From NCBI GenBank assembly GCA_039621445.1, contig CP154954.1, positions 7,876,634 to 7,940,633 of the forward strand: a stretch of DNA of 64,000 nucleotides. Reading direction: 5' to 3'. The position numbers and the translations under genes were made by a program. The notes under the pieces are model-generated. The model made no database searches, was not told the DNA's origin, and worked only from the letters and a program-made list of their open reading frames with translations. This DNA comes from Euglena gracilis. Taxonomy: Eukaryota. Each line of letters begins with the position of its first letter. Position 1 is the stretch's first letter. Below are positions 3,026 through 56,800 of the stretch, piece by piece.

Positions 3026-5920
3026 CTGGGCAGGCCGGCAGAGAACCATCTCCCCATCAAATGCCACCCCCAAGGCGGTGTGTGAAATGAAAAAAAAAAC
3101 CTTTATCGTGCATACGTTTAATAATCAGGCAACTTTTGCCAGATTCAGGGAGGGTATGGCCCAATTTCTGGGAATAGGCCAAAAAAAACGGCCCCATTTA
3201 GGACATAGAGTTGGCCGGAAGTTAGGTCCTGGTTTCGGAAGATTTGTTGGAACACGGTTTGCCTAAACTTTGCCGGAATTCGGGGGTCTACCGCAAAAGT
3301 GGAATCCCAACTTTTTGGTTACCTTCGAGGAGGCTCCGCGGAGCCTCCGCGGAGCCTCCGCGGAGGCTCCTCGGAGCCTCAAGGTAACCAGGCTCCGCGG
3401 AGGCTCCTCGGAGCCTAAGGTAACCAGGCTCCGAGGAGGCTCCGCGGAGGCTCCTCGGAGCCTAAGGTAACCAGGCTCCGCGGAGGCTAAGGTAACCAGG
3501 CTCCGCGGAGGCTCCAAGGTAACCAGGCTCCGCGGAGCCTCCAAGGTAACCAGGCTCCGCGGAGCCTCCACGGAGCCTAAGGTAACCGGGCTCCGCGGAG
3601 GCTCAAGGTAACCAGGCTCCGAGGAGGCTCCGCGGAGGCTCGTCGGAGGCTAAGGTAACCAGTTTTGCCAGGGCATATTGTGAACATGGTAGTAACGGGA
3701 ATTTTGTTTTTTTTTGTGTTATAAAGAGAAACGTTATTCAATGTCAAACATGGCGACTGCACTCAGTGGCAGATCATGCTCTTCCAAACCTATCAGAATC
3801 TGTCCATTTTCTGCCCATTTGCATAGAGGATGCAAAAAAAAATTCACGTTCTGACAGGTTCGGAAGCTGCCACTGGGCGCAGTCGCCGTGTTTGACATTG
3901 AAGAAAGTTTCTTTTTATAACACAGAAAAAAACAAAAAAATAAATTCCCATTCCCAGTTGTATGTTCCCAGCGGGATGACAATTTTACGTACAATTCTGG
4001 CCTCTGGATAATTTTGGTGTAATTCTGGCAGAATAAATCCATTTTCGGTTTCGTTTTAAACTGTATGTTATCACTCAAAGTCCCTGTCCATTTGCTGCCC
4101 ATTTGCACAGAGGGGAAAATAATTCACGGACTAACTCACGGACTAATTCACAGACTCACAGGTGTAACAAAAAATTAACAGACTTCGGGAGGCAACATAG
4201 AGCGTAAACGAAACGGAAAATGAATTTATTCAGCCAGGATTTTACCTGAATTATCCAGACGCCAGAATTGTGCCTGAGATTGTGATCCCATTGGGATTTG
4301 CCGCAACTTTTAATCCTGAATTGGACTAAAGAATCTTCAACCAGGTGAACGAACAGTCACGTGGGGGGGAGGTGGTAGACAAACTGCACGTCAGCATGGA
4401 TGTGATGTTGCAAATAAAGGCCAGGTGAAACCCAAAGTGATCCATTTGGCTGTGCCCGGGGGGAGGGGGGCGGGGGGAGGGGGGGGGGGAGAGGGGAGGG
4501 GGGGGTGGGAGGGGGCCTGCTGCCCCCTCCCCCCGCCCCCCTCCCCCCTCCCCCCCCCCCTCCCCCCGCCCCCCTCCCCCCTCCCCCCGCCCCCCTCCCC
4601 CCCCCCCCCCCCACCCCCCCTTCCCCCCTACCCCCCACCCCCCTCCCCTGCTCCCCAATAACAACATCCCTTTGTGTGGACAAAGATTGGCGGACATGGC
4701 GTAAATAGCAAACGGGTAAACGGTAAAAGCAAATAAGGCAGACATGGCGTTTTTGTTGCAAATGGATTTTTGGTTTCAACAAGTTTGGTGGACATGGCGA
4801 AAACAGCAAATGGGTAAACGGTAAAAGCAAAATCAGGCGGACATGGCGTTTTTGTGGCAAATGGATGAATGGTTTTCAACAAGATTGGCAGACATGGCAT
4901 TATATAGCGAACGGGTAAACGCTAAATGCAAAATAAGGAGGCAAATGGATAAATAGTTTTCAACAAGTTTGGCGCAGGGCGGTCCTTAAGGAAATAAAAA
5001 AACAAAATTCTGCCGTCCCACACTCAATAAAAAATACAGGAAAATGGGCAAAGAAATTTGGCATTCTTCGGCGACAACAGGTCGATATCAGGGGGAAAAA
5101 CTGATTATTGGCATCCTGTGACCATCGACCAATCCACCCAAATCATCAAAAAGTGTGTTTTTTTTTGGACTTTTTAATTTTGGACCCCGTTCAAGTCCCA
5201 GTCCTGCCCTTGGTCGGTCCTTTGGCCGAAAGAGGGGCGGTGCTTAAGAAAATTAAAAAAAAACTTTCCTGTCCCTTAAAGACTGCCCTGGTTTGGCGGA
5301 CATGGCGTAAATGGCAAACGGTTAAATGGTAAAAATAAAAATTAGGAGGACATGGCATTTTTGTTGCAAATAGATTTTTGGTTTTCAACAAGTTTGACAT
5401 GGCGTATACAGTAAACGGGTAAACGGTAAAGCGGTGCGATACCAGACATGGCCTGTGTACAACAGTGGTTACCTCCGAGGAGCCTCCGCGGAGGCTCCGC
5501 GGAGGCTCCAAGGTAACCAGGCTCCGCGGAGCCTCCAAGGTAACCAGGCTCCGCGGAGCCTCCTCGGAGCCTAAGGTAACCAGGCTCCGCGGAGGCTCAA
5601 GGTAACCAGGCTCCGAGGAGGCTCCGCGGAGGCTCCTCGGAGCCTAAGGTAACCAGGCTCCGCGGAGCCTAAGGTAACCAGGCTCCGCGGAGGCTCCAAG
5701 GTAATCAGGCTCCGCGGAGGCTCCAAGGTAACCAGGCTCCGCGGAGCCTCCTCGGAGCCTAAGGTAACCAGGCTCCGCGGAGGCTCCTCGGAGGCTAGGT
5801 AACCAAAACTTAGGATTCCACATTTGCTGGGACCCGGAATTCGGCCTAAAATCTTCCTAACTTGGTCAGGAACGGGTGTAACTTATTCCGGAATACCTAT
5901 ATTTAGAGCGCCAGCGAGTA

Positions 5921-5951
<31 letters not shown>

Positions 5952-8719
5952 GTGTGCGCGCGCGTCTTTATATATACGTATGTGTGTATGCATACATACA
6001 TACATACATACATACACACATACATCCATTCACACACACATACATACATACATGCATACATACATACATACATACATACATTACATACACACATTACATA
6101 CATACATTACATACATACATTACATACATACATTACATACATACATTACATACATACATTACATACATACATTACATACATACATTACATGCATACATTA
6201 CATACATACATTACATACATACATTACATACATGCATACATACATACATTACATACATACATACATACACACATACATACATACATACATACATACATAC
6301 ATACATACATCCGTCCGTCCGTACATACAAACATACATACATACATACGTACGTACGTACGTATGCATGCATGCATGTATGTTTGTTGTGTGCATCTGTG
6401 TGTGTATATTTGCGTGTGTTATTCACAGCACACGCATTGATATTTAAATGACACATTTCATATTCATATTTGCATTTTATGACATTATATGTGTGTATGT
6501 GTGTGGGTACATATGCATATGTGTATTCGTGTATATTTGTAATCAAATTGAGAATCAGTCAATGATGGGAGGGAGCCATATACCTTGCTCTTGGGCGGAC
6601 GCCTGCACTGGGGCAATGGGCTGGGCGGCAAGGGCGACCTTCGGGCTGGCGGCAGAGGTTTGGGCGGGGGCAGCGGCCGGGACAGCCTCTGCAGGGGGGG
6701 GGGGAGGGGTTTACGGGACAGGCCAATGTCCAAGAACACCGATATTTCAAGAATGTGGCGGCGAAACTGGGGGGGTCAAAGACACGGTGCGCCAACCCAT
6801 ATTGTTAACACACAGCAACAAAAAAATGAATCCCCCCCTTTTTATGCATTTGGTGCTGTTTGGGCCAAATATTGGTTTGAACAGCTGAGTCAGCATTCAG
6901 CACCCCAACCGGATCACCAAACCGATACACCGGGAGGGGCATTAATTGCCCTCCGCCTTCCATTGGACAAGGACGGGCCACACACACCCTGCTGGGTCGG
7001 GGTGACGGGCTGGGTGGCGGGGGCTGCAGCTGGAGCGCCCTCTGCAGAGGGGGGGAGAGGGTTGGCACATTGTTTCCTCTGTGTGCCTGCGGGGGTGAAG
7101 TGTTGTGACGCTCAAACCTGGTCTTGGGGCAGGGGGGCATCAAGCTGTTGTTTACCAACCCTGGGGGGGGGAGGGGGGTCCGGAGTGCCTGCCCAGGCAG
7201 GCACTACTCCCCCCCCCCGGGAGGGGGTCGGATTTCGGCCTGTGCCCAGGCACATTCCTTTGAAAATAGGCCATTTTCGGCTCCCCGGCGCCTTTGGCGC
7301 CAGGTCTGTGCTAGGGCACTTTTGGCCGTGTCCCCCCCCCCCGGGTCGAATCGAGAGTGCCTTGGAGTGCCTACCCAGGCAGGCACTCCCCCCCGGGGTG
7401 GGGTCGGCACCCGACTAAAATACGGCCTGGGGGGCATCTTGAGGTGCGAGAGTCATGGTTGTTGATATCACCAAAACGATTTATGTCGCTGTTCCAAAAA
7501 TCCTGTTCTGCTATTTTTCAAAGAACCTTCCAGGAATCTCATTTTGTTTTCTATTTTCAGCAAATCTTTTCCTTGTTGTTAACTTCCTGAACTTTTCAAT
7601 TTTTGGTTTGTAAATCAAAATTGCACAACCAATGCCAAATAACAATCAAGAAATATCCAGTTCGCCCCAGCAGAGGGGCTCACAAATCCAGGAAAAGCAG
7701 GTGGGCCAGAGATGAATTTTAGCCCTGCCCTGCACTGCATCCAACACACCAAAAAGGACCCAAAATAAACACCTCAAAAAAAAAACAGCAGGAAACCAAA
7801 TCTGTCCTTTGGCATTCTTTCTTGGATTGTAAAATTATCACCTTGAGCCAATACAATGAGCGTGGCACAGGTTCCATTTTGATGTGCCAGGCGCCAGACT
7901 GCTTTTTCCCAACCCAGGGGGTGCACTGCATCATTGGGGGCCTGCCCATAGCAAGCACACCCCGACCCCGGGAGGGGAGCAGTTTTTTTGAGTCCCAGTG
8001 CCAACCAACCAAGCCACTTTTTCCCTTGCAAATGGCCCCCAGCACCGGGGGCATAGCACTGCTCACCAAAAATCCGACCCCCTCCCCACAACAAATACCT
8101 TCCTGCCCATACCACCATACTACCCTCCCGGCGGGAGGGGGGGGGTGCGAACTTTTCTGAAAACAAGCCGGCCATAGCCTGCCACACACACCCTGGTGGG
8201 CCGGGGTGACGGGCTGGGTGGCAGGGGCGGCCTTCGGGCTGGCGGTTTGGGCGGGGGCAGCGGCGGGGGCGGCCTCTGTGTGGGGGGGAGGGGGTGGCGT
8301 TGCTTCCTCTGTGTGAATGCAGGATGATGTGTTGTAACGCTCAAGCCTGGTCCCAGGGCACCGTGTTTGCTAATATCATCAAAACCGTTGACATCACTGT
8401 TCAAAAATTCTGATCATTATTATCATTATCATTATTCTTCTTCTTCCTATTATTAAAAAAAATTCAACAATATCATTCTGTTAATCTGTACCATTCATTT
8501 CCCATTATAACATTTCACACCTTTTCAGCAGTTCCAGCGTTGCACTTTTCGTTGCAAATCTCTGAGTTTCGTCCCCTCAATTTTTGGGTTGGAAAATCAA
8601 AACTGCACTTTTAATGCCCGAATAACATCCAAGATATATCCAGTTTGCAGCCCTGCAGAGGGCTCACGTTGGTTCCACTCCGCCTTCCATTTCGATATTC
8701 GGTCCATAGGTGGACAGGG

Positions 8720-8774
<55 letters not shown>

Positions 8775-8818
8775 CACACATACACACACAAACACAAACA
8801 CACACAGACACACACACA

Positions 8819-8856
<38 letters not shown>

Positions 8857-9669
8857 GCTGGGCCAGGGCAATGGGCTGGGCAGGGGCGGCGTTCTGGCTG
8901 GCGGGTTGGGCGGTAGGTTGGGTGGGGACAGCTTCTGTATGGTGGGGGAGTGGTCGTACGGAACAAACAGCTGAGAACCCGGGCTCAATTCATTTGGAAT
9001 TGGACTGCATGTGGCTGGCCTCTGGCTAGGGCTGTATGGAAAGGCCTGGTGGGGGGCAGGCTTCAATTTAAGGGCAGGTGGGGGGGTCCAGACCCTGGTC
9101 CAGGAGGGGGGGGGGACTCCTGGATCGGGGGACCCCGACCTAAACCCTGTATGCCTCCTTGTATCGAACCCTGGGGGGTCGACCCATCGGGATTAATGCT
9201 GGGATTAGTGCTGGGATTGTGCCCCAACGATGCATTGTTCAGGGGGGGGGATGGTTTGCATTCCACGTGGGGTGATGAGGTGAATAACTTTGATTCTTGA
9301 AGCCCTGGAAGATCAAAACCAGATTTGATTCCTGGGCGTTTTCTTCCCCTACAACAGCCATGTGGGTATTGTGTGTTTTTTTGGAGATCTGGCTTTCTTG
9401 CACTTTTGATTTGTAAATCTAAATGCGCAAGGCAGAAACATCCACTTGCAGCCTGAAGAAATGAAGAAAAACACAAACCAGGAAAACCATGCCGCCTGTT
9501 AGTGCTTTGAAAAATCCAAATTCAAAGCTGTAGACTGAAAAATTGTCCCATATAATGCAACAAATCCAGCACATATATATGAATATGACCAAAACACTTG
9601 CATACACAACGCAGACACACAGGCAGGTCTTCATCGGACACATGGGGGGGCACACACAACGCGCGCGCG

Positions 9670-15000: not shown

Positions 15001-16498
15001 TCATCAAAACCGTTTCTGCACCTGTCTCAAAAATGTTTTTCTTCATGGAATTGTTCAAATACTTAACCAATTTTCACCAATTGTTTATTTTTTCAGGAAT
15101 TTGTTTAGCATTTTCATAAGCTCCTGAAACACTGTTTTATGAATTAACGCCTGAATTCCTGGATGTCTTGTGCCATTTTTGGTTTGCAAGAACAAAATGC
15201 ACAAGGCAGGAAGATCCAGTACGCCGCCTGCACAAAAGCACATCCAGGAAAACCTTGCACAGGCCAGAGCTGCTTGTTCCATAAACTGTAAATTGTAAAG
15301 AGAGACCGTAAAGAGAAATTCAGGGTGGTCCTCAAGGAAATAAAAAAAATATCTGCTGTCCCAGCACACTCAATGAAAATATACAGGAAAATGGGCAAAG
15401 AAATTTGGCATTCTTCGGCGACAACAGGTCCACATCAGGAAAAAAAAAACTGATTCTTGGCATCCTTGGACCATCGCCCATCCGCCCAAATCATCAAAAA
15501 ATGTGTTTTTTGGACTTTTTAATTTTGGACCCCGTTCAAGTCCCAGTCCGGCCCTTGGTCGGCCCTTTGGTCGAAAGGGGGGGCGGTCCTTAAGAAAACA
15601 AAAAAAACAACTTTCCTGTCCCTTAAGGACCGCCCTGGAGAAATTGTGAAGCTGGACACTGAAAAAAAAATGGCAGCCCGAAACTACTGGGCCCCCCCGG
15701 GGGGGGGCAGTAGTTAATCCGGGGGGTCAAAATAGTTTTTTCGTGTTAATGATGGAATAGGGTTAGGTGCGCGACTTAGGCTTAGGGTTAGGCCTAATTT
15801 ATAGACGGGTGTTCGGTGTACAAGTTAGGCCTAACCCTAAGCCTAAGTCGCGCACCTAACCCTATTCCATCATTAACGCAAAAAAATTACCTTGACCCCC
15901 CGGATTAACTACTGGGCCCCCCCGGGGGGGGGGGCAGTAGTTTCGGGCTGCCAAAAAAATTACCTTGAAATCAGGCGTTTAAAGACCCCAGGGAAAAGGG
16001 ACTGCTGGCTGACCATTTTGCAAGACACTGGAAAAATAAGCCACAAGCCAAGCCATTAGCTAGACCGCTAGAGGGGGTCCGAGTGTGCTGCGCGCCGAGG
16101 TGGAAATGAGGCTTTTAATGTGTTTTGGGGGGGGGGGTAACTTTGTTTCAAAAAAAAATCCCAAAAATGGCCAAAATGGGCATTTTTGGCAAATGTTTGG
16201 GGGTCAAAAAATTTTCGGCGCTTCGGGCCAGCCACTGGAAAAAAAATACCACCATTTAGCCCTGTTACTGCCCCCCCCCCCCCAGGAGGGTTTCCGCTGA
16301 GATTCCCACTTGCCAAATTTGGACCAGCTGCACTCCAGCCCCCTGGGGCAGGGGGGGGGGTAACTACGAACCCCTCAAGCAGAAACCTGTCAGCAATGCA
16401 CATAAAAATGTCCAGCACATAAAAATATGTCCACAGCACAAAAAACACATCACTTGCACTGCGCCATTCCACGGGAAGGGGCCGCACACACACACACA

Positions 16499-16771: not shown

Positions 16772-17391
16772 ACACACACAAACACAACACACCCTGCTGG
16801 GCTGGGACGATGGGTTGGGCAGCGGGGGCTTCCTTCGGGCTGGCGGTGGCGGTTTGGGCGGGGGCAGCGGCCTCTGCAGAATTGAGGGGGGAGGGTTGGT
16901 GCATTGCTTACTCGGGGTGTAGTATTTTGACGCTCGAATTCGGTCCTGGGGGATAAGGTGAGGGACGAGAGGCAGCTTGCTAACGTTGTGAAATCCATTT
17001 CCGCCTCTGTTTCAAAGAGTCTTTCGTTACACTGCTTTGAATTTCCCAACTCTTTCAGCAATTTCCGTTTCTTCATTTGCAACGTTTCATGATTAGCTGG
17101 TGCACTTTTCAACTGCTGACCTGCTGAATCATGACATCCAAAAAATATTCGCAATACTGAAATTTCTCCCTGCAAGGAATTCAGATCACCAGAAAAATAT
17201 GACATGCAATACCCACACGGATGTTGTCAGGGGGGAAAAATGTGGAGGAGCCAAATCTGGTTTTGATCAAAGTCACCTCATCACCTCAGGTATATCCAAT
17301 CAACCCAACCCCACCTCAAAAAATACATCATTGGGGACTTTTTCGGGGACTGTTCCCCGCCATTTGATGGTCGATGCCACGCACATGCACA

Positions 17392-17424
<33 letters not shown>

Positions 17425-17425
17425 A

Positions 17426-17456
<31 letters not shown>

Positions 17457-17467
17457 GCGCGCGCACA

Positions 17468-17550
<83 letters not shown>

Positions 17551-17563
17551 GCACACACACACA

Positions 17564-17622
<59 letters not shown>

Positions 17623-17635
17623 GCACACACACACA

Positions 17636-17702
<67 letters not shown>

Positions 17703-17715
17703 GCACACACACACA

Positions 17716-17779
<64 letters not shown>

Positions 17780-17801
17780 CACACACACGCACACACACAC
17801 A

Positions 17802-17864
<63 letters not shown>

Positions 17865-17877
17865 GCACACACACACA

Positions 17878-17952
<75 letters not shown>

Positions 17953-19370
17953 GCACACACACACACGCACGCACGCACGCACGCACGTGCACACACCCTG
18001 CTGGGCCGGTGCAACGGGCTGGGCAGCAGGGGCGGCCTTCGGGTTGGCGGTGGCGGCCTCTGCAGCAGGGGGGGGACACATTATTGACTCTGCATGGCAC
18101 TGCATTTGCTGCTGTTTGGTCATTGCTGGATGCTTCCCTCATTCTTTATTCATGCCTTGCTTTGTTTGGTTGATAGCAAATCAAAATTCCAACTCACACC
18201 CCAAAACAGAAATATACACCGGCCACCACCTGCAGAGAGAGCCAGAACTTCTGTTCCATACAGCTTCAAATATCTTTTGAACAATGAAATTCAAGCAACG
18301 CTTGGGAATCTGAAAGATGTGCCCTGTGAAATTTGCTTCTAGCTCGTGATCATTCATGATTATTTGTGCAACCAAAAAAGCGCCTGGTAATTTCCCGCAC
18401 AATGCAGAATGGACATTTATGATGATTTCATTTCATTTATTATATTTTTTTTTGCGGAAAAAAACTGCAGAATATGCAGAACTTTGCCAAACATTATTTT
18501 CTGGAGGATGGTGGGGGTACTTTGGTCAAGCTCCAAAAGTACTGCAGAAACAAACAAAATTGACCCCAAAAAGGACAATGATTGCCCAATGATGATAGAA
18601 AATGATTAACAACTGGCCCAAATGAGCAAAAATTGGGTGCTGATGGCCCAAAGTTGCTGACAAATCAGTCAAAAAAAAACTGGCCAATGACGTCAAAAAA
18701 ATATTGATTTATGATACACCCCATTTATTTAAACATGTCGTGGTCCGCCTTGTTACGGACACTTTCGGAGGCCAGATTTCACCAGCTTGCACTTCGTACG
18801 AAGCACCTTGGCTTTCCCCAGCACTTGCCATCCTCCTCTGACCTCCATCCTGCCCAACGCCAACCACCGGTCCTCCAATCCCACACACTTTTCATCAGGA
18901 AGAAACCATCCGTGACGCGATGACTGAACTATAGGTGATGGCGAAGTCATGATGGACAGAGGGGAGGGCATGGAGGAGAGCACAAGAGAGAGGAAAAGAG
19001 AGCACAGAGCAAGGACGAGAGGAATTGTCACCCTTTGTCCATGGTTGATTTTCCTTTGAGGGGAATACACCCTTGATGGAAAGGCCATTATCAGAGGGAC
19101 ATCATAAGCGAGAGAAATTCTCATTCATGGTTATTTGTGGTTGTTCGTGGTCGTTCGTCATCCGTGATCATTCGTGACTTTGGAAAATCCCCGAACTTGT
19201 GCTTGTTTGCGATTATTCGTGATTATTTGTGGCACAAACTTTTGGGAACCCCTGACGACTCAGCATCCCCTTCTGTTCCAATCAACACCCAGTCGAGAGC
19301 AGATGCAGTCTGAGGAAGGGTGTTCATAGGCCGAGGAAGGGTCTCCATCGGACACAGGGGAGAACACACA

Positions 19371-19433
<63 letters not shown>

Positions 19434-22400
19434 CACAGCACACCACCCTGCTTTGTCGACTGTGCAGGTCCGGCAGAGGCAGCTGATAGAGGCGCCGGAG
19501 TTGCGGAGGGCAGACTGGCTGCAGTTTGGGGGCCAGCAGCGGTCGCTGTTTGGGCGGAGCCAGTGCTTTGGGGGTTGGCAGCAACTGTGTGGGGGGAAGG
19601 GGGCAGGACGACAACCAGGGTTTCACCAAAATTGTTTACAACATGGATTCAAAAAAACCAATCAACCAAAAAAAATGCAAAAAAAATACCACCTCCAAAA
19701 TGCATTAAATTTAATAAATTAAAATTTTTATTTGACGTTTGGTTCGGAAAAATTTAATTAAATCATTAAATAATTAGTTAATAGGAAAAATTTATTTAAT
19801 TCCCACCCGAAAGCAGTCTGAACGTGGCCTAGCAATGTGTGGTACGTTGGCACACCAATACCAATGAAACTGAAAAAAAAAACTGCGACAAACCTCCCCA
19901 AACATGCAGACACAAAAAAAATACAAAAGATGTCGCGCATATTTTTTAAAAAGCATACTGAAAACCACTGTTTTTTTTTGCACCACTGTTTACATATTTT
20001 GTGCAAATAGTTTTTGTGTCTTTATTTGCACCTGAATTAATAAATTCTAATTCTGAATTAACAAATTGTAACTCAACTTTCCGTGGTTTGGGGGTCGGGT
20101 GTTTAAATGTTTTATTTTTCTTCAACCCAAACAATAAAAACAAGCGAAGCAATACAACCATTTCACATGATGTAAATGATATAACACAATACATCATTTC
20201 CAAAAAATCAAAAAAATATTGAGAAAAAATTTGTGTTTTCCCTCCCATGCCCGTCGGAACGCAACCCACCTTCCTGCGATGCAGAAGCAGCCTGGGACGC
20301 GGTGGCGGTGGACTGGATGGCGAGTGGGGCCGCCGTCAGGCTGGGCCCAGCAGTCTGCACGGCAGTGGCCGGGGCCGCCCCTGCAACACACAAGCAAACC
20401 GCTAGAACGGCGGTGGGCTGGCAGCGTCGGAGGGACAGTGGTGTGCATTGGAGGAGGGTCCTTTTCCAAGGCCAGGGGGCCACTGGGGTCCTTCATCCAT
20501 ATGGGTGAACAATTCTTCATCCGGATGGGGGCTCCACTTTTGGGGAGGTTGAATGGTGACAGAAAACTATTTTGCCAAGTCCCTCTGGAGGTGCCCACTC
20601 GAGCTGACTCGGTTAATGGGGATCTTTGTATACATAACCATGATAATACACACGCATATGCATACATAAAATATATAGATGGACATATAGGCACATACAT
20701 ACATACGTACATACATACATACATACATACATACATACATACATGCATACATACATACATACATACATACATACATACATACATACATACATACATACAT
20801 ACATGCATGCATACATGCATGCATGCATGCATACATACATACATACACACATACATACATACACGTGCACATACATATATACATACATACATGCACACGT
20901 ACATGCCACGGTTGGCGTTTATTTTTGTTTTTTTAAAAAGTGTAATTTTTTAAAAATAAACCAGTATAAAAACATTGTTTTTTGAAAATACAAATTTTCT
21001 TATATTTTCCTTAAAAAATGGGCCTTTTGGGGAAAGGCCCAAAACCATACCGTGGGAGACATGAACGAAAAAAATGATAATTTTGTTTTTGTGGATGTAG
21101 GACGCAGGGGTTTTTTTTAAGACCGGGGGGAGGGGGGGTCCCCCCACCCACCCACCCCCTGGGCCCCCCCCCCCCGGGGAGGGGGGTCCCAGGGGACCCA
21201 CAAAAAATGGCCGAAAAATCGCGAAAAGTGCTAAAAATAGCACTTTTTTGGCGCCTTCGGCGCCGAAAAGTATATCCCACCCCCCTCTGGGGGGACCCCC
21301 GGGGGGGGCTCGGCCGGACCCACCCGCCCTGCCCCCCCCCCGCCGGGGGTCCACGACTAAAAAAAACCCCTGGTAGGATGGCCTATATCCAAAAAGAACC
21401 TTCCAACTGTCGCTGAATCAAGGCATGGCACATTTGAAAAGCCGCAGTGTTTCAGAGGGTTTACTCCTCACTGTCTGATTGCCCTGGGTCCACTTTTTTG
21501 GATTTTTTTTTTTGCTGAAAACGTCACCCAAAGAAGCCTTCCTGCAGGAGGGCTTATTTTTCATTCAAGACCCATTTTATTCAGCACCTATTTTTGGATC
21601 CTAAAGGACAGCCTTTGGAAAGGAACCAAAATTTGCTTCAAGGAATGATTATTTTGCAACATGCACAAAATGGCATAAAAATCAAAATCACCCATTTTTG
21701 GGGGCAGTTTCACAGTGTGGGTCGGGTTTTTTTTTTGACCGGGGGAGGGGGGTCTCCCCACCCCCCACCCACCCCCTGGGGGATCCCGGGGGACCCACTC
21801 AAAATGGCCAAAAAATTTGCGGAAAACGCCAAAAATAGCACCTTTTCAAAAATTTTCGGCGCCTTTTGCGCCGAAAAGTATATCCCACCCCCCTCCGGGG
21901 GGATCCCCCGGCGGGGGGGCTCGCCAGACCTACCCCCCCTACCCCCCCCCCGGGTGCAAAATAAAAAAACCCCTGGTGTGGGTGCTTTCTGGGGGGCATC
22001 CCCCCCAAAAAATCCCAACGGGGCTCAAGTTTTGCAGTTAGATAAAAATCAGCCGGGGGATCTTTTGGGGGGGGTCTGATTTGGGGGGTACTTCGATGGA
22101 TAATGTCAGGCAATGTCCTGGAGGTGTGGCGTGGACACGGGGGTTTGCCGGCGACACATCACCCACATGGGGCGGGGGGAGGCCAGCTGGCAATCACAGG
22201 CACAAACGTGTTGCACTGGGATTGGGGGCAAGTCCTTCGCACCGAGCCTAGCACCGATGGGCAAAACGAAAGTGTCAGCCCTCAGACCCGCCACAGCACA
22301 GCCGGGGGCGTGGCACGCACCGCAATCGCCCCCATCAAAGCCGCACGCTTGCACGTTGCAGGCGGGGTCGCACTGCGAGTTGCCAATCCATGAGAACGGG

Positions 22401-25400
22401 CAGCCCGCCACGCACAGCGGCAGCGCTGGGAGGCGACGCAATTGGGTCGTGGCGCAGCTTCAACAATAACTGGGGCGGTTGCGCAGGAAGCCATTTGTTG
22501 TCGGCGGTTGTCATACGACTGCCGCCAACAACAAATGGTCAAATGCGGGGGGGGGGGGGCTGTATGGGAAAGATTGTTTCAATCCAGATGCAGGCGGGCA
22601 GGGGTCGACACACAGGGCGGCGATTCAGCACATTCTATGAAAAATCCACAAAAAAAGGCCGAAAGAAATGACCATAATTTGGCAAAAATGGGTCGAATGT
22701 GGGTGAAATTTTTTGGGGGGAACGGGTGTTTCGACTTTTCAATTTTTTCGACCCCAGTTGAGCCCCAGTTTGGCCCTTGCCCAGCCCTCAGGCTTACAAG
22801 TGGTCCTTGAGGGGTGGTCCTTGGGGAGAGGGGGGGAAAAAACCCAAAAATCCCGTCCCTTATGGACGCCTTGTCGACGACAGAGCACTGCACAAGGATA
22901 AAACGAAGGCGGAGGAAGGAAAGCCGGGGGAAAAAAAACACCACCCCCTTCCCAACTACCCAAAAAATTTTTCCGGGATTCCTGTCTTCCTGGAGGTGGG
23001 GTTGATCTTGGGGGACCCCTGGCCCAGCACCCGGGGAAGCTCGGCCTCAACTTGCACAGGCGAGAAGAGCGCGATATCAAATGCCCACACGTCGCACTGG
23101 CCACGCCAGGGATTCAGCCATGCAAGACGCGTGCTCCAATTGCACGCTGGCAGAGGTGGACTCAGCACACCGTTCGAAGAGGCTGGCAGGACGGTGGCTG
23201 CGGACCCCGACTGGGCGGTGGTGACTTGTTGGCAGCCCATTGCTCAAGGACCCCCGGTGGACCACTGGCTAGCCATTTTGCTGGACACTGGAAAAAATGG
23301 ACTGGCTAGACCCCCCTCTCCCCGGATCTCCCCTGGGGGGGATCGGGGGAGCCCCCCCCCCCCCCCGACTGGACTGGAAATAATTTTTTTCCGGCGGTGA
23401 TTCCGAGGTGGAAATGAGATTCTTAATGCATTTTTTGGCTGATTTTTTCAAAAATAAAATCCAAAAAAAGGCCAAAGATGGGCATCTTTGGCCATTTTGG
23501 GGGGTCCCAGAAATTTTTTCCAGTGATTTGTACGAAATTCTGATCACTGGAAAAACTCCACCAACCCTGCCAGCAGACCCCCCGGGGGGAGGTTCCACCA
23601 TAATTCCCAGAAGCCAAATCTGTAGAAGCTGCAGTCCAGCCCCCCCCCCCCCAGGGTGCTGTGAAACCTTAAGCAAAGGCCTGCTTGTTGGGCGGCTGCA
23701 GAAGTGGAGGTCGTGCCTGCGGAGGGGGAGGGGGAAGTGGTGCACACTGACAGGGAAAATTCTGAGAGGAAAGATCTGGCAAATTGTATGGGTTGGTGCC
23801 AAGCCTCCTTTTCAGAATCGGATTGGTGCCAGTGTGGTCTTCAGCTCAACCCCACACAGGCTATTGCGTTAGCACTCCAGGAGAGGGGGGCTGGCCATTT
23901 TGCTGGACACTGGAAAAAAGGAACAAACTAGACCCCCTGGGGAGGGGGTCCGGGGGTCCCCAAGACTGGAAAGAAATCTTCCTCCAGCGCTGTGCGCCAA
24001 TGTGGAAACGAGGCTTTTAATGTGTTTTTTTGGGATGATTTTTTTTGCTCCAAAAAGCCCAAAAATGGTCAAAAATGGGCATTTTTGGCACTTTTGGGGG
24101 ACCCAAAAATTTTTCGATGCTTCACGTTTTTCACTGGAAAAAAAATCACCAAGCCCTGCTGGATCCCCCCCCCCCGGAGTCCACTCATCAAATTTGGACC
24201 AGCTGCAGTCCAGCCCCCCCCCCCCCCCACAAGGGGGTTACCGCAACCCTTAAGCAATGGCCTGACCCCCCAGGTTTTGAAGAAAAAGTCAAAAATGGTG
24301 AAAATGAGGTCACCTCCCCAACCTGCAGGGTCCCATGCCAATCGGGAGGGTCTTTTAAAAAAGCCTGGTCTCGCAATGTGTGCCTCAAACGACCCTATTG
24401 TTATTCCAGCAGGCTGTTCCTTGGACAGACGAAGGGGGGGATGGCCCAAGAGGAAAGCAGTATCTCTCTCGGTGTCTACCCACACCTGCACTTTTAACAT
24501 CTGCACCGGTGCAAAACCCAAGTTAACAAAAGCAGGGGACCCGGATGGCTTTCTTTTTGGCCTTTCGGTCAATTCGATTTGTGAAGTTCGGAACTTTTTC
24601 CGAAGTTTTACACTGCCCCGTTTCACAACGAATACACAACAGCTGGGTAAGCACAAACTGGATGGTGCGCCCACACATCCAACTTTCGAAACCCCCTTTT
24701 GGGGAGCAACTATCCTGCCATCCGAGAATATTTGGTTTCAATGATGACACCGGACAGGGAATGCACGCACAACTCTGTCGGACTGACCACAGCGAGGCAA
24801 GATCGACCACACCGCAGTCGCCCCCGTCGAAGCTGCACGCCTGCACGTTGCACGCCGGGTCGCACTGCGAGTTGCCGATCTTGTCCAGGGATCCTTTGAC
24901 TCACCTCACCGCAACGTGCAAAAAAAAATTGCAAGCCTGGAGCTGGGGGGGGGAGGGGAGCCTTCAACAAATCCCTGACTCAAGAGAAAGGGCAGCCAGG
25001 CACACACAGTGGCAGTGCTGAGGAAAAGAAAACCCAACACGAATGCTGAGATGGGGCAGGTTGCCAGGGCTACAACAATGCTCGTTGGCAACTGTGGCAC
25101 ACTGCTTCAACGGTCCAGTGGGAAAAAATCACCAAAAATTTGGAACGCAAAAAGAAATCAATCAAAACAGCAGAAAATTTATGTTCCAGGTCACACCATT
25201 CACAAAATCAAATACAAATTTCTGTTGCCGATGGGGGGATCACACTGGAGAAAAGCGGGTGAATAAAATTTTAAAGTGGCAGTCTTGGCTGATAATAGAA
25301 AAATATGGGGGCCTCAGCCTGGAAAAATATTTGGAGGACCCAGAAAAAAATGGAGATTGAAGAAAGATTTAGGGTTTTAGAAACAAATTAATAAAATAGG

Positions 25401-26081
25401 TTACCAACATAGGAATCTGACTTTGGTCAAAACAAAGTCGGAATTTTCTCGCTCAAATAAAGAAATGCCAATATCCTCCAAATTGGCACCAGTTTTGTGC
25501 ACCTCATCGTGAAAATGATGGTTTTTTTTCGAATTATCGTGGGAAATTTTGGAGGAATTTTTTCCCTCCGGTTTTTCCCCATCCAATCTTCTCCATCCCC
25601 ACTGCTCCTCCCATGGTGGGAAATTAGACCGTTGTATTTTTTAATACATCAGACAACATCATATCTCTCCTGTTCTGAGACTCACCCCAACTATGTGCGC
25701 AGGTGTGGGTCATACTTCAATCACACCGTTTGTTGAAACTGTTGGGAGAATGATGGGCTGTGTGGCTGCAGGTTTGGTGCTGGAGCTCGAAGTCGAGCTT
25801 GCAGTGGCTGCGGGGGAATTAAACATGAGAATGCAACACAGAAAAATGAGTAAGTGCGACGTCACTGTTGATGGGCATGAACACATATTTACACGTGCGT
25901 GGAAAAACTCATCAACTCATCCAACCGTATCTGCTCAGTGGAACACCATGTCATGTCGCTCACCAAGCCCCAGGGAAAAAACCAAGAAACCAGTATGTCA
26001 CGATAAAAAAAAAAACTGGTCAACCCACATCCCCTAAATGGTGTCGGGCGACCCAGGAACAACAATACCAAGCGATGGCAC

Positions 26082-26137
<56 letters not shown>

Positions 26138-26143
26138 CGCACG

Positions 26144-26218
<75 letters not shown>

Positions 26219-29200
26219 ACACACATGCACGCAGGCACACACAGACACACACGCACACAAATGCACATGCATGAAAGCCAACGCAGCTGGCGGGAGGGGG
26301 TGGGGGGCACACTACCCTGGGCGGCCAGTGCCGGGGCAGCGGTGGCAGTGGCGGGTTGGGTGGCCAGGGCAGCCGCACCGGTGGCGGCTGACTGGGCGGT
26401 GGCTGTGGCTGCAACACACGGGGGTTTTGCCGGAGAAAGCATGCCACCCAGGCGTGTGGGGGGGCTGGTCTGAACCCCGGGGGGGGGGGGGTCAAAACCC
26501 CTCCTCTGTGCAAAAAAAAAAATCCGGCACAAAGCGCCAGAAATTGTTTCGACCGTGCAAAAAGCCCCAAAATAGCGTATTTGCACACTTTCTTGAAAAA
26601 AAATCAGACAAAACAAACACAAAAACAAACACCAAAATTTCTTCCCCGGCGCGAAGCACCAGGAAAAAAATGGATTCTTTTTTGGTCCCGGCCTCCCCTT
26701 GGTCCAAAGGGGGAGGTGGTCTGGACCCCCTCCCCCCACCCCGCAAAGCCACCGCTCGCGTAACCCCCTGCCCCCAGGATTATAACACTGATGAGGCGGA
26801 CCAACAATGAAATTTTGTGGAAGGGAAAAAGAAGTGTTCAATACGCAATCCAAGCACAGGAACTGAGGGAATTTTGTGCCTTTAGGAACCCCGAAAAATA
26901 CACAATTGCACATGAGCACCTGCAAATTAAAATTTGAAAAAATACACCCAACACACATTTCTGACGCATGCATAAATACATACATATGTGCAGGCGGACA
27001 AACATTCATACATACGTGCCTGTGGAAATACATCCATGTGTGCATACATACTGACATACAAACAAAGAAACGTTGGTGCATACATTGTGCATACATGGAT
27101 GCATACGACACACTGATATTTTGCATATATCTTAGGCGGCGCATCTCGCACTTAAATTTTTTTCTTTACAACGTGCGCAATTGTTCAAAATGACATTTTT
27201 TTACGAAAACCCTGAACCGCCAACCGCACCTGGTGAAACAGAAATATGTAGATGCACACCTCACGATACATGTTAGGAAACAGGAAGGTTTCAAAAAAGT
27301 TTCTTAACTAGCTGCCTGATATGTCTGGAGGGACAGCTTCATGTTCTTGTCTGTGAAACAGGTGGGTTGTGCACTCTGGCTGTTATACCCATGGGGTTTG
27401 GTGTGTCTGTGCAGCCTGTGATTGCTGGGTGTTGCACACCTGTTTGAGGGGGACCGACTTTTCACCATTAGGACAATGCGATGTGCAGTTAAAATTAGAT
27501 GATAATTGCGAGACAAAAACCTTTTCAGCATTATGTCCCTATCGATGGACTGAAATATGTGTCAACGCCGGCGCCAAAATCAAATTTTTTTCGGGGTGCG
27601 AAAATACGCACACCGACCAAAAGAAAGCTTGAGCGCGAGATGCGCCGCCTAAATATATATGACACCTGCACCAGAATGCTCTGGGCCAGTTGGTGCACAC
27701 CCTGTTGCGCAGCGGCCGGCGCCGGGGCAGGGGTGGCTGGGGCTTCCGCCTTGGGGACCACACTGGCCTGGGCGGGGGTCCCGGCTGTGGTGGTCCCTGC
27801 GAAGGCAAACGCCAGGGTCTTTGCTGAGTCTGAACATGGCGAAAGAGCAACCACGCACTGGTTTCCCGGGTGGCGATGCGGGAAAATCGAGTTGTCACAA
27901 ACCGACTGCGAATCTATCGAAACAAATCAGCCATCTATCAGGCAACTGCCAGCCGAAAAGCGGGGAAGGTGCACACACCGCAGTCGCCCCCGTCGAAGCT
28001 GCACGCCGGCACATTGCACGCCGGGTCGCACTGCGAATTGCCGATCCAATCCAGGGCTCTTTGACGGATACCATTGCCCACCAGGCTTGTGCTTACCGAC
28101 CGGGGGGGGGGGAGGGGGGTCGGTGGGTGCTATAGGGTGCCTGCCCCTAGCAGGCACACCTCCGGGGGGGGGGGGGGTCCGGGGGACCCAGAAAATTTCC
28201 ATTGAAAACGGAGTCGAGGGTCGAGGGGGGTGCCTGCTTTGGGCAGGCACCCCCAAAAAACCCTACCCCCCCCCCCCGGGTGGATGGGGTGCTATAGGGT
28301 GCCTGCCCCTAGCACCCCCCCCCGTGGGGTAGGCACTCGACTGAGCACAAGCCTGTTGCCCACCCACAGATCTTGGAATTCCCATTCAGCCCTGCTCTGG
28401 GGGGGGGATGGGGAGGTTGGTGGGTGAGCCCCCCCCCCCCGGAGGTGGGGTCGAGCCAAAGAAAATAAACCCCCAGAGGAGCTAACCCCTCTTTTCAGTG
28501 AAAAGAGATGGGGGAAATAAACCCAAAGTTAGCCATAACTGTCCAACGCCAACTGCAATTCACTGCAATTCTAAAAAGTTATGTGAATCTGGACAGTGCC
28601 CTTGCAATCGATATCCTGGCACTTGGCATTTTGATTTTGTGTGGCAATGAATACCAATGTCAGCTTGGGAGACAAGAACATCAGGTCAAAACCCAGAAAA
28701 ATGCGGCAAATAACACAAACTTGCATTCCCAGGCACACAACGACAACAACTTCCATGGATGGTTGAGGGCACTCCCAACAAATCCCTGATCCACGAGAAA
28801 GGGCAGCCAGCAACGCACAGCGGCAGGTCTGGGGAAACACATGCCGATGCAAAATGAAACGGAAAAAAACTGGCAAATGAGGCTACGGCTGTACCAATGC
28901 ACTTAATCTTGTATATTAAGAAAACTCCCCCCCCCCCAAATAACCTGGCGGGGCCCTTGCTTCTGGCAGTGGCCGAACAACTTGGCGGGGGAGGGGCAAA
29001 AAAGATGGTTCCAATAATTTGGCACCCCCCCCCCGGCAAAATTGGCAAGATTCCTTTACGGCGCTGAAAAGAGGTCTCAAATTACCTGGCAGGGGGCAGG
29101 GCCAAAAGTTGGTTCCAACAACCTGGCACCCCGCCACATCATTTGGGGGGTTACAAATAAAAATGTGTGTACCAATATATTTATAAAATGGGGGGGGCTG

Positions 29201-32200
29201 GTACATGGACCAGAGACAGCAACAGGTTGCCCGGTCCAGCCATGTGGTTGACGCGGCAGGGAGAAGGGCAGGCTGAGTGGCAGTGGCTTTGGGACCGGAG
29301 CCCGCGGCTTGAGGTGTTGCGGTGGCTGCAACGCGCTTCCCAAATGGTACCACTTGACAGAAATGCGCACGGGACTCACTGATGTGAATGTAAATGAGGC
29401 GGTGAGCGAGCCACATTTTCAGGCCCAGCAATGGAGACTCCAGCAGGTCCACACCCTCCTGTGCGGCAGCTTGAGCCGGGGTAGTGGCAGCAGCGGGTGG
29501 TACTGGGGTCGTGGCAGCCGCGGCGACGGGTTGTGCCGGGGTCGTGGCAGTGGCGGCTGCAGGTTGTGCCGGTGTCGTCGCAGCAGCAGTTGCGTCTTGA
29601 GCGGGGGTTGTGGCAGCGGCGGGGTGTACCGGGGTCGTGGCAGCGGGCGTGGCAGCGGGCTGAATGGCCGGGGCTGCAACACTCGGGCCGCTGCCAGCGG
29701 CGGCCGGGGTCGCTGCTGGAGCTGAAAGACGCCGGGCGAGGCAGGGAAACCGCATCGCGAAACGCAGGTCTCGGACGAGGCGTTCATGGGCTTGGATGTG
29801 GAACATGCAATCCAGAGAGTGAGTGCAGTGAAAATCTGCAATGAGTTCACCATCTTCACCCAGGCTAAACAAAATTAACAAATGCTGTCGAAAATCGGTT
29901 GAAACATACACCAAATTTTTTCGGTTTCCGGCGGGAAATGCCGGAAATTTGGGGGGGTTGCCCAGGAGGGGGGGGGGGGGACCCAGACCCCCCTCGGTGT
30001 GAAGGGGGGTCCCTCCCCCCTGGGAACACCCCCTGAAAAACCACCGCTCATGTGATACCCTGGGGCCAGGGGGCAAGGCTTCTTATATACCCAAACCCCG
30101 GGAGGTTGGGGGTACTTGCTATGAGGTGCCTGCCCATAGCAGGCACCCCCACCCCCCGGGCCAGGACCTTAGATTCACTTGCCATCTGTGTGAGCATACC
30201 TCCCCCCCCCCCGGGGGGGGTTCGAGAGTGGGTGGGCCCACCCTGGGGGGGGGGCGCAATATTTTGGAACAGCTGAAGGCCAGGCCGGAGATAATCTGAT
30301 CAGCGGTTTTGACGAATATTGGCTGTATTTTTGGGTGGGTGGGTGGTGGATCCCCGACCCCACGGGGGGGGGGGCAGCCCGGCGCCCCTTCGGGGGGGGG
30401 GGGGGAAACCGGGCCGTCTGAGGGCATTTCCCCCAAAAAATTGGCAGTCCGTGCAAAAACCCATTCCGGGGCCGGACCCATTCCGGGGGGGCCGGACCAA
30501 TTCCGGGATTCCGGGGGGGGGGGGAGACCTGTCCATTCCGGGGGGGACGGCCCCAGGGGGGAGGGCTGACAGAAGCCTGAGCACCACCCCACCCCAAAAC
30601 CCGACCCCCAGGGACACTGCCCTGCCTCCTGCCTGCCCATGTACCCCCACAGGGGTTTTTTTAAGACCGGGGGGTCCCCCCACCCACCCACCCCCTGGGG
30701 GCCCCCGGGGGGGGGGGGGTGGTCCCGGGGAACCCACAAAAAATGGCCGAAAAATGGCGAAAAGTGCTAAAAATAGCACTTTTTCGGCACCTTCGGTGGC
30801 GAAAAGTATATCCCACCCCCCCTCCGGGGGGACCCCCCCGGGGGGGGGGGGCTCAGCCGAACCCACCCACCCTACCCCCCTCCCCCCCCGGGGGTCCACG
30901 ACTAAAAAAACCCCTGTACCTCCATTCTGTGGGGTGTGAACGTCCGGGGGGCACACCCTGCTGCACAGCGGGCGGCGCCAGGGCGGGGGTGGCAGCCGGC
31001 TGGGCGGCCGGGGTGGCCGTCGAGGGGCTGGTGCTGGCAGCTGCAGTGGGGGCGCCAGCGGTGGCGGTCCCTGCGGGGGAAAAGCTCTCGGACACAACGC
31101 GGTGGGGTCAGGCTCCGATGCAAAGCCAGGTGGGGGGGTCGGACCCCTAACTTGAACAGTGGCACAATCTTTCAACCTGGCGCGAAGCGCCGGGCCAGAA
31201 AACTTGGACCCCCAAAACATTATGGGCACTTTTGGCAAAAAAAAATGTCAAAATGCAAAAATTTTCGGTGCAAAGCGCCAAAAGGAAAACTTTGACCTTT
31301 TTTGGGAAGGTCTGGCCCATCCTTGGCAGGTGGGGGGTGGTCTGTGGACCCCCCTCCAGGGGGACACCCCCCCCACGCCAAAACCCCGCACGCCCTCCCC
31401 GAACCCTGGGCTGTGGTCCGGAAAATGAAGGGCAGTAGGGAAGACCATCCCACCGCTCACCAAAAACTGATAGGCGGTCTCACCACAGGACGTATTCTGC
31501 TTCGCCTCAAAAACTTTCATTCACTCAATGGTTCACGATTGGCCCCAAACTCAATAATATGCCCCGAGAATATTATTTGGGGGGGTTATTTGCTTTTTTA
31601 GAATTGCATTCTGCCAGCATTCACCACTCACTCAATCAGGGCTCAGTGCCCAGACTCAGCACCATTCTCAGCATTGCAACTCAGCACTTCCAAGCACAAA
31701 TCCGATCACAAAAGAGACACTTGTTTCAAAAAAGGATTATCCAATTTACCGCGCTAAAGCTGTTCCCCTCTCACTTACTCTTTATACGGAAATATATTTC
31801 ACCTTCATGCCAGAAACGTGTTTGTTTTTCAGGCACAAAGGCATTATTATGATCTGAGGAAACCCGACAAAGTGAAGTTAATCAGAGCCACAATTCAAAA
31901 AAAAAGCTGGGTTCTTTGGGAAATCTGTCCTCTGACCCATTAAAATTTTTAAAACCCAACCCCAGAAACCCAAAAGAAATTGCTTCTCAGATCCCCCCCC
32001 AAAAAGCAGAGGGAACGCATGCATGAATGAATGCAAATCGAGAGCCACACGCACACACCACAAACACACACCACAATCACCACCATCAAAGCTGCACGCT
32101 TGCACGTTGCACGCTGGGTCGCACTGCGAGTTGCCAATCCACGAGTATGGACACCCGGCCACGCACAGCGGCTGATCTGGGAGGGTAAGAATAAGAATGA

Positions 32201-53859: not shown

Positions 53860-56800
53860 ATGAATGAAGAGCCCATTGTTCGGGGGGATCCAAAATCGCA
53901 TGAAGAGAAGGATGAAGAAAAAGGCGGGAAGCCAATAATCCTTTTCAATGCTTGCAAGAAGGAGGTGTGGAGCGTTGGAGGTTGGCGTAAGAACTATTTC
54001 GAAGATGTGTCCCCAGCATGAAGCGCGTCCTCATTTTTATCTGCCCTTTTCTCAGATGTACACTGCAGCCCAAGGTTACAGGCAGCTTAATCGGAAGCTC
54101 AAATCAACGTACAAAGTTGACTTGTATGCCCCACTGCTTTGTTCACTCCATTTAAAGCGCTTAGCAGGAACCAATTCTGGGGTGGGGTCCGTCCCGCCTC
54201 CTATGTTGGGGTGTTGCATGTCTCGGCATCTGACTTGAAAATGGATTGAATTATCCCTGCTTGAAGATCATCTGTCTCCCTGTACTGCGGGGTGGGGGAC
54301 GGGTCCGGCACTTATCTGTCATCCCACAACGGACCCCCCTTTCGGTTTTCCTACGACGCCCCGTTAGCTGTCAGATTACCTTTGACATTGGCCCGTACCT
54401 TGCCCACAAAGGCGGCAGACAGGCAGGGGGAAAGAAGACAACAGGTCTTCCTGAACACAGAGAGGGAGGGTGATTTGCCCAAACTTCGATAATTCGGAAA
54501 AAATCGCCTTGTTTGAAGTCATTTCGGATAATTTTTTGACCCCATGTCTATCTGACTTAGTTTTCCCTTGCGGGCGTCCAACTGCAGCCTGGTCTTGGGA
54601 GATCAGGCAATGGACTTTGGTCATTTTTGCGAGGGGGCTTCTTCTGAGTATGGGGGTGTTTGATGGTTGGGTTGGGAGGCTAGGCACAGCGTGGGGGGGG
54701 GGGGCTGGCTGCGGCGCGGGGGGGGGGGGGGAGGGGGGGAGGGGGGGTCCGAGGGGGGGAGGGGGGTCCGAGGTCCCAAAATCGGTGTTTTTCGGGTCCA
54801 AAAAGTGGTCATTTTTGGCCATTTTTTTTACCATTTTTTTTTCAAAAAAAATGCTTTTTGGCCACGCACGGAGCACGCAACCCCAAATTTGTCCAGAAAT
54901 GTCATTTTGGGCCATTTTTGGGCCTCAAAAAGTCGGATTTTTCCCGAATTTTTTTTCTTGGGGAAGCTGGGCACAGTGGGGGGAGGGGGGTGTCGAGGGG
55001 GGGGGGCGAGCGGCTGTGCAGGGGCCGCGGGGGGGGGAGGGTCCCAGACCCCCCCCCGAGCAGCGCGCCTAGCCCCTGCTTATCTGTTATTCTATGACCC
55101 CCCTTTCAGTTACCCTATGACTCCTTCTCTTCCTCTTCCGGGGTAGTGTTGTAAACTGGGTTAGGGTCAGGAGTTGTCATTGTGAACCCCATTCAAGTTC
55201 AGTGTTTGAACCTTCAGGGGCGTCCCGAGCCCCCCCCCCCCCCTCTACCTCCCCCAAATGGTGAACTTCAGTGGTGGAGTTCAACGAAATGGTCATTTTT
55301 GCAAAAAAAAAAATAGGCACAACATTTCACACATCAAAACTTCACCCTGCCTGGACCGGCGGCCTGGCCGACAGCTGTGGGCCGGCAAATGGGGTGTTTT
55401 TTTGTCCTGGCATTCAGTTGTGGGGGGAATCAAAATAACATTTGACAGGGCTTTTAAGGGATTGGACACCATTTTGGAGATATTTTGATAATTTCGATTT
55501 TTGGGACCAGTCCCAAAAAACCTAAAACGGGCTGTATTTGGGGTCAGGCGCGCAGCTGGCCCTTGGCCTGAACAGGTTGATTCAAGATCTAGGGCTTGAT
55601 TTTTAGTTCCCCTGTGAATTCCCCAAACATTCTTTTGTTAGGAGCAGTCGGCTGGCTCAACAGTCTAATATCCAATTTTCTGCTGTACATACAGTCTACA
55701 ATGCCCCCCCCTTACTGTTCCCCTCCTTGGTGTTCCCATTGGGGAGATAGGAACAGCACTGTCAGGGCACTTTTTGTTTAGGGTTAAAAACGGAAAATTT
55801 TGGTTGGTTCCACGTGCTCTGCTTCCCATCAAACACCAAACCAACACCGGGGTGGGCATTGGAGGTGCATTTTTCAAGCATGTGAAGGCTTCATTTTGCC
55901 ATTTTAAGTGACCTTTTAGGTCTAGCTTGGCTGGTCAGTTCCATGGGAACAGTAAGGGGGGCAGTGTCCTCCCTTGCTGTTCAGTAAGTGTTCGCTGCAC
56001 GACCGCCACCTAACTCCAACCCTAACCCAAACCCAAACCCTGATCCGACCCTGACCCCGACCCTGACCCTAACCCGACCCAAACCCTAACCCGACCCGAA
56101 CCCGACCCTGACCCTAACCCCGTTCCAAGAACCAAAATTCGACTCTGCCGTTGGGGGTGGCGGTCGTGCAGCGAACAAGAATCTGCTGTCCCCCCCCCTT
56201 TGCTGTTTCCATGGTCCCAAGAGGGGGCCATAGGACGGGAACAGTGAGGGGGGGCATGGTAATGTACATACGGCGGGGACGCCAATTTGTGGTCCAATTT
56301 AGACACATGCAACTTGGGCAAAAATCGAAAACCGTGCAGGAAAGAAACTGGTGGCCCATTAGTCTGGAGGCTGCCATCTGTTCACAACTATTCTTTTTGG
56401 GCATGAACAATTAATCCTGTTCAGGGGTCCCGAACGAATCATCGACATTGTCCCAACAGTCCCAACCTTATTAGGAGGTCCCCCCAAAACCCCCCAAACC
56501 CCCATTTTTTCACGCCTTCCAAAGTTTCAACATTTTCTCAAAATTTTGATTTTGAGAGGGTTTTGAAGCAAAAAATGCCATTGAAAATGCAAAAAAAAAT
56601 TCCAAGAGAAAAAATGCCAGTAAAATTTAACTGTGCCAAAATTTGGTCCAAGTTTTTTGACCTTTTTTCACCCTCCTCCTAAAAACTACCATTTTTCAAC
56701 CTGGTTTTCTAATATTTTTTTTCACATACGGTTTTCATTCTCCCCTCCTCTCCACAAACCACCGCTCACCCTGGGGACCCCCCCAGGGGGTCCAGCGCTG

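Follow-up and report, generated by a model that had tools for sequence, protein, structure and literature searches.

A MITE-type transposable element appears to have inserted into a coding exon of an LNR-domain gene of Euglena gracilis, and we believe that it would be removed from the transcript by the nonconventional splicing pathway, together with one copy of the duplication that its insertion created. We give this reading a probability of roughly six in ten (0.62). In the mechanism that we propose, a non-autonomous DNA transposon with CAG...CTG ends would have entered an 87-nt coding exon of a gene predicted to encode a repetitive protein of LNR domains and Ala/Pro/Thr-rich linkers, and its entry would have created an 8-bp duplication. 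In the pre-mRNA, the element and its duplication would then read NNN-CAG-stem...stem-CTG-NNNNN, followed by a purine; the inverted ends would pair, and the nonconventional pathway would cut 3 nt before CAG and 5 nt after CTG. The 459 nt released (23228-23686) would consist of the element and exactly one copy of the duplication, and the original reading frame would be back. Since 3 + 5 = 8, elements of this kind should be removable from transcripts in either orientation.

The element and the exon that it splits

On the plus strand of the 64,000-nt stretch analysed here (the window), the 451-bp element is flanked by two copies of CTTGTTGG (Table 1). On the minus strand, which is the coding strand, the duplication reads CCAACAAG and is perfect at 8 of 8 positions; it is exactly 8 nt long, because the adjacent bases on both sides differ. 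The ends form inverted arms of 17 nt with CAG...CTG termini (CAGCCCATTGCTCAAGG, the other end being CAGGCCTTTGCTTAAGG when reverse-complemented). As RNA, the arms give 14 Watson–Crick pairs and one G-U pair over the 17 positions, and they are paired in the MFE and centroid folds alike. Folding of the whole element gave a z-score of -2.24, with equally good folding in three of 100 shuffles.

Read along the minus strand, the locus presents a conventional acceptor (ttccccctccccctccgcag|GCACG), a 33-nt coding piece whose last bases are CCAACAAG, the element, a second CCAACAAG with a further 54 nt, and a conventional donor (CGAACG|gtgtgc). The introns on either side are ordinary GT-AG introns (23717-24812 upstream and 22426-23170 downstream). 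Excision of the element with one duplication copy joins the 33 nt to the 54 nt in a single frame and yields an exon of 87 nt, phase 1-1, which resembles an 81-nt paralogous exon at 25807-25727. Translation through the element runs into a stop at 23546, and GT-AG or GC-AG ends are found at none of the nine slide positions within the duplication. A preliminary description of this stretch had claimed a CAG...CTG element with a perfect 8-bp duplication inside an exon, a normal cag acceptor on the upstream half and a G|gtgtgc donor on the downstream half, a stop on read-through, no GT-AG or GC-AG position within the duplication, and an in-frame 87-nt phase 1-1 exon like its neighbours after removal of 459 nt. 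Our analysis recovered both flanks and both arms as well as the two splice signals, located the stop, and reproduced the reconstructed exon, whose neighbours are also phase 1-1.

Table 1. Features of the locus and of its surroundings, in window coordinates.
Feature	Position	Strand	Basis
MITE-type element, exonic copy of its family ('family D'), CAG...CTG terminal inverted repeats	23233-23683	-	sequence, fold
Duplication copy upstream in the transcript, CCAACAAG; first 5 nt predicted exon, last 3 (AAG) the 5' spacer	23684-23691	-	
Duplication copy downstream in the transcript, CCAACAAG; first 5 nt (CCAAC) the 3' spacer, last 3 predicted exon	23225-23232	-	
Predicted nonconventional intron, 459 nt, AAGCAG...CTGCCAAC	23228-23686	-	rule of 3 nt + CAG / CTG + 5 nt (PMC12501133); removal predicted
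Split exon, upstream part; preceded by conventional acceptor cag at 23717-23719	23687-23716	-	
Split exon, downstream part; followed by conventional donor gtgtgc at 23165-23170	23171-23227	-	
Next exon downstream, U22, an uninterrupted 105-nt LNR exon	22321-22425	-	PF00066, 35.2 bits (cut-off 21.2)
Nonconventional intron, 100 nt, AG..AA, splitting LNR exon U24	24881-24980	-	comparison of paralogous exons
Homologous nonconventional intron splitting LNR exon U28, with a nested MITE at 28082-28355 (duplication TTGCCCAC)	28047-28791	-	
Sister copy of the element family, duplication 7/8 (ACCCCACA/ACCCCCCA), inside the conventional GT-AG intron 23717-24812	23857-24264	-	
Third, more decayed copy of the element family, duplication 4/8 by eye	15972-16389	.	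alignment
Seven CAG...CTG elements with duplications of 7-8/8	4975-5290, 15321-15637, 21105-21372, 23233-23683, 23857-24264, 28082-28355, 30650-30916		

Repeat family and transposon class

The element has inverted repeats and a duplication, occurs in several dispersed copies, is 451 bp long and shows no transposase, as is usual for a MITE. Its family is represented by three copies in the window, which align over their whole length with a mean column identity of 73% and with long conserved internal blocks. One of these is the sister copy in the ordinary intron upstream of the split exon; the preliminary description had pointed it out, and the whole-length alignment and its own 7/8 duplication bear this out. 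The inverted ends, the 8-bp duplication and the family copies together make the identification as a MITE-type element a supported one, judged from sequence.

As a chance control, we collected from the whole window every pair of CAG and CTG lying 40-3000 bp apart with at least 9 of 12 further inverted-repeat matches (n = 64). The 8-mers flanking the pair were at least 7/8 identical in seven cases and perfect in four, and when the compared 8-mers were displaced outward by 10 or 20 nt, 0/64 and 0/64 reached 7/8. A control over all 64 terminal trinucleotides had been swamped by microsatellites and was dropped for the displaced 8-mers. We did not accept the perfect 8-mers at 6653-8896 and 28824-30963 as duplications, since both derive from paralogous exons and the inverted ends there are poor (11/25).

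By their ends, the seven duplicated elements form four families, all starting with CAGG or CAGC. The five that do not belong to the family of the exonic element represent the three other families, with ends CAGGGYGGTCCTYAAGG, CAGGGGTTTTTTT and CAGGCTTGTGCT, and none of them lies in an exon. An exonic position is thus found for one of the seven elements in the window, which counts against our main reading.

A DNA run from a related organism (X18) covered the element parts about a thousand times more deeply than the unique flanks; this is a rough measure and not a count, and therefore a rough sign of high copy number. Contigs from the same run left 23171-23232 and 23684-23716 uncovered. Elsewhere these contigs, which are labelled as another organism, are 100% identical to the window at 22605-22783 and 22843-23072, and about 95-96% identical at 22157-22546 and 25420-25976. 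This could mean a close relative or mapping to paralogues. An Rfam scan of the window returned no matches, and neither did a metagenome search with a conserved 24-nt block from the element family.

An 8-nt repeat with intervening sequence might also arise by repair of a double-strand break and not by transposition, and break repair is the origin ascribed to a newly gained nonconventional intron with 8-nt direct repeats in E. agilis gapC (PMC4770533). At the present locus we regard this as very improbable. The sequence belongs to a repeat family whose whole-length copies elsewhere include one with inverted ends and a 7/8 duplication of its own, the depth of the element parts in X18, rough as it is, far exceeds that of the unique flanks, and seven elements of four families within 64 kb all have matching flanking 8-mers.

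Transposition is therefore the origin that we favour. The hAT elements and hAT-type MITEs create 8-bp duplications and have short inverted ends that start with CA or TA. Like hAT-type MITEs, the element is small and non-coding, with an 8-bp duplication and CAG termini; it may be placed in hAT putatively, on the basis of the duplication length and the CA/CAG termini. Among the listed ORFs of at least 110 aa, none in the window looked like a transposase by eye. Merlin elements make duplications of 8-9 bp and have inverted ends starting 5'-GG, and members with 8-bp duplications are reported from E. gracilis (PMC8101967). Their duplication length fits, but seven of seven elements here start with CAG and not GG, and we rejected this superfamily.

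The host gene and nonconventional introns in its LNR exons

The window is from E. gracilis, because the exons of an IFT52 gene within it (plus strand, 53860-60907) are 100% identical to EG_transcript_9433 of eukprot. Residues 1-237 were mapped; we did not find the remainder within the window. Each of the five introns mapped is of the GT-AG type; the donors read G|GTGTG, and the CAG acceptor follows a C-rich tract. These introns provide a transcript-supported standard for conventional splice signals.

The split exon belongs to a long minus-strand gene that extends from about 7 kb to 41 kb of the window. Two types of exon make up this gene: LNR exons of 105 nt, which score 35-43 bits against Pfam PF00066 (cut-off 21.2), and Ala/Pro/Thr/Gln-rich exons of 81-99 nt. 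All are phase 1-1 with a uniform kind of acceptor and donor, and frames and splice signals are intact over more than 30 kb. The split exon has as phase 1-1 neighbours the 105-nt LNR exons, an 87-nt exon at 40956-40870, the 81-nt paralogue and several exons of 90 nt. On sequence grounds the exon split by the element is supported as real, because its acceptor and donor resemble those of the five IFT52 introns and because, once reconstructed, it fits the exon series of the gene and the 81-nt paralogue.

Several features of the surrounding sequence were also recorded. Between 7000 and 17000, the minus strand carries a series of 90-nt exons that are almost identical; their acceptors read ctgcag and their donors CAGG|gtgtg, and they apparently belong to the same long gene or to a tandem relative. 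Many conventional G|GTGTG donors lead directly, on the coding strand, into (GT)n or related microsatellites (e.g. from 39747 downwards, and at 19364-19443, 26085-26259 and 17100-18100), and several introns are filled with long arrays of the AC/ACGC type.

In pairwise comparisons of the six LNR exons, pN/pS lay between 0.05 and 0.29 in 15 of 15 pairs (pS 0.09-0.72), with differences that are mostly synonymous. We conclude that the host gene has been under protein-level constraint. This bears on the possibility that the gene or allele is silent or decaying and carries a neutral insertion that escapes processing altogether. RNA reads from three runs (X21, X22 and X24, from two studies, about 5-6% of each being read) gave a depth of zero in every bin that holds exons of the host gene; the reads placed on the window numbered 165, 105 and 187 respectively, nearly all of them partial, in repeat parts and of 90-99% identity. 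Protein searches are in line with silence as well, and both results also count against nonconventional removal. A word search with the LNR ORF produced five candidates among longer proteins, none significant, and none of near length, while the 150 best of 1580 matches in an LNR profile search of 1.84 billion representatives lacked the exon peptides, none exceeding 77% identity to the window. The low pN/pS in every LNR pair and the intact frames and splice signals nevertheless argue against decay, and the RNA sample covers a small fraction of each run and few conditions. We therefore think it unlikely that the gene or allele is silent or decaying.

Evidence that the host gene makes use of the nonconventional pathway comes from its LNR exons. 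Four of the six are uninterrupted; U24 and U28 are split at the same codon, behind ..FSW, by introns that are homologous to each other and start with CAGGGATTTG. The four uninterrupted exons serve as 'empty' paralogues of these two. In U24 the direct repeat has decayed, and of 676 boundary pairs a single one brings ..SWIGNSQCD.. back into register, namely the pair that leaves 3 nt ahead of CAG and 5 nt behind CTG. In U28, eight boundary pairs work, the 3/5 pair among them, and none is GT-AG. Read with the 3/5 rule, both exons become 105 nt long like their paralogues, with pN/pS of 0.05-0.25 against the other LNR exons. This evolutionary evidence, drawn from U24 and U28, suggests that the nonconventional pathway acts on the host gene.

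Spacers, duplication and the published splicing code

The nonconventional introns of Euglena require a CAG after a 3-nt spacer, a CTG followed by a 5-nt spacer, where some tolerance exists, a purine at the start of the next exon, and pairing beside the CAG and CTG; fully synthetic 50-bp introns with just those features were spliced in E. gracilis (PMC12501133). In the transcribed sense, our locus reads AAG-CAG...CTG-CCAAC|A. Its spacers of 3 and 5 nt are those of the code, and the first base of the predicted downstream exon is a purine (A at 23227, minus strand). With the pairing of the arms, every cis requirement of the published code can be recognised at the element, a conclusion that we consider supported at the level of sequence.

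The two spacers sum to 8 nt, which is the length of the duplication. It follows that a CAG/CTG element with an 8-bp duplication brings the complete code along in either orientation, and the purine is the sole feature of the code that is set by the target sequence. Of the proposal in the preliminary description that the MITE is itself a nonconventional intron, the MITE, the exon, the agreement with the code and the restored frame all stand up, and removal at the RNA level is best described as a strong prediction.

The insertion might instead be tolerated through conventional alternative splicing, with the whole split exon skipped or with the 54-nt piece used by way of the AAG at 23225-23227. 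Skipping of one piece or of both would keep the frame, since the pieces of 33 and 54 nt are each a multiple of 3 and the exons are all phase 1-1, and so repetitive a protein may be able to spare a linker unit. Exons have, moreover, been seen to be skipped incidentally where nonconventional introns were defective (PMC12501133). The element, however, has all the cis features that suffice for the splicing of synthetic introns, no pyrimidine tract precedes the AAG, and the neighbouring exons U24 and U28, which are still constrained, evidently depend on nonconventional removal. We accordingly assign conventional rescue a low probability; together with a silent gene, it is the main rival to nonconventional removal.

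The locus shares several features with the nonconventional introns described from E. agilis and E. gracilis (PMC12501133, PMC3935182, PMC4770533): it lacks GT/GC-AG ends, CAG stands at +4..+6 and CTG at -8..-6, the ends pair, the predicted next exon opens with a purine, and there are direct repeats at the junctions, which make such introns 'slidable'. What sets the candidate apart is that it can be recognised as one of the many copies of an inverted-repeat element and that its 8-bp duplication is intact.

Introner elements and other transposon-derived noncanonical introns of Micromonas, Amoebophrya, Polarella and Fritillaria likewise have inverted ends and duplications and become introns upon insertion, and the geometry of the cut is set in part by the duplication there, as is predicted here (PMC11282704). 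Removal of most introners is attributed to the spliceosome, whereas the nonconventional introns of Euglena are removed after the conventional ones and appear as circular RNA (PMC11282704). We rejected a spliceosomal introner at the present locus, where the GT/GC-AG sites that the element or its duplication would have to supply are absent at all slide positions. Giroux et al. in 1994 reportedly found maize Ds insertions to be spliced out of exons. Removal of Ds uses cryptic spliceosomal sites and is imprecise. Ds resembles our element as a transposon with an 8-bp duplication that sits in an exon and is removed at the RNA level, a step that is predicted here; it differs in that the predicted removal of our element is exact.

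The preliminary description overstated the novelty of the idea, for the proposal that the nonconventional introns of euglenids stem from MITEs dates from 2014 (PMC3935182). It has been repeated since (PMC4770533, PMC11282704, PMC12501133), and it recurs in a survey of the introns of E. gracilis from 2024 (PMC11170887) and in a diplonemid paper from 2025 (PMC12621601). A review from 2024 depicts CAG/CTG as the inverted ends and calls the repeats 'TSD-like' (PMC11282704), and the 2025 paper on the code states that the origin of these introns 'remains unclear' (PMC12501133). Supplements aside, our literature search found no Euglena MITE family named as acting as a nonconventional intron. In the same search, which took in the accessible main text of PMC3935182, PMC4770533, PMC11282704 and PMC12501133, the 3- and 5-nt spacers were nowhere linked to an 8-bp duplication. 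The locus thus gives concrete form to a hypothesis already in print, with 3 + 5 = 8 as the added insight, and is not a new concept.

The MITE idea has so far rested on the inverted ends and short repeats of individual introns. The present locus offers a repeat family that can be named, with copies inside and outside an exon, an intact 8-bp duplication and an arithmetic link between spacers and duplication, and this link turns the question of origin into one for a genome-wide census and a knock-in experiment. A wider interpretation, which we hold tentatively and at a little under even odds, is that the nonconventional code of Euglena is the footprint of one class of transposon with CAG...CTG ends and 8-bp duplications. 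It predicts that, genome-wide, young nonconventional introns will be found in MITE families with 8-bp repeats. If it is true, any element newly inserted into a transcribed exon would be a precise intron from the outset, whichever way round it lay, and this would explain why most introns of Euglena are nonconventional and 'slidable'.
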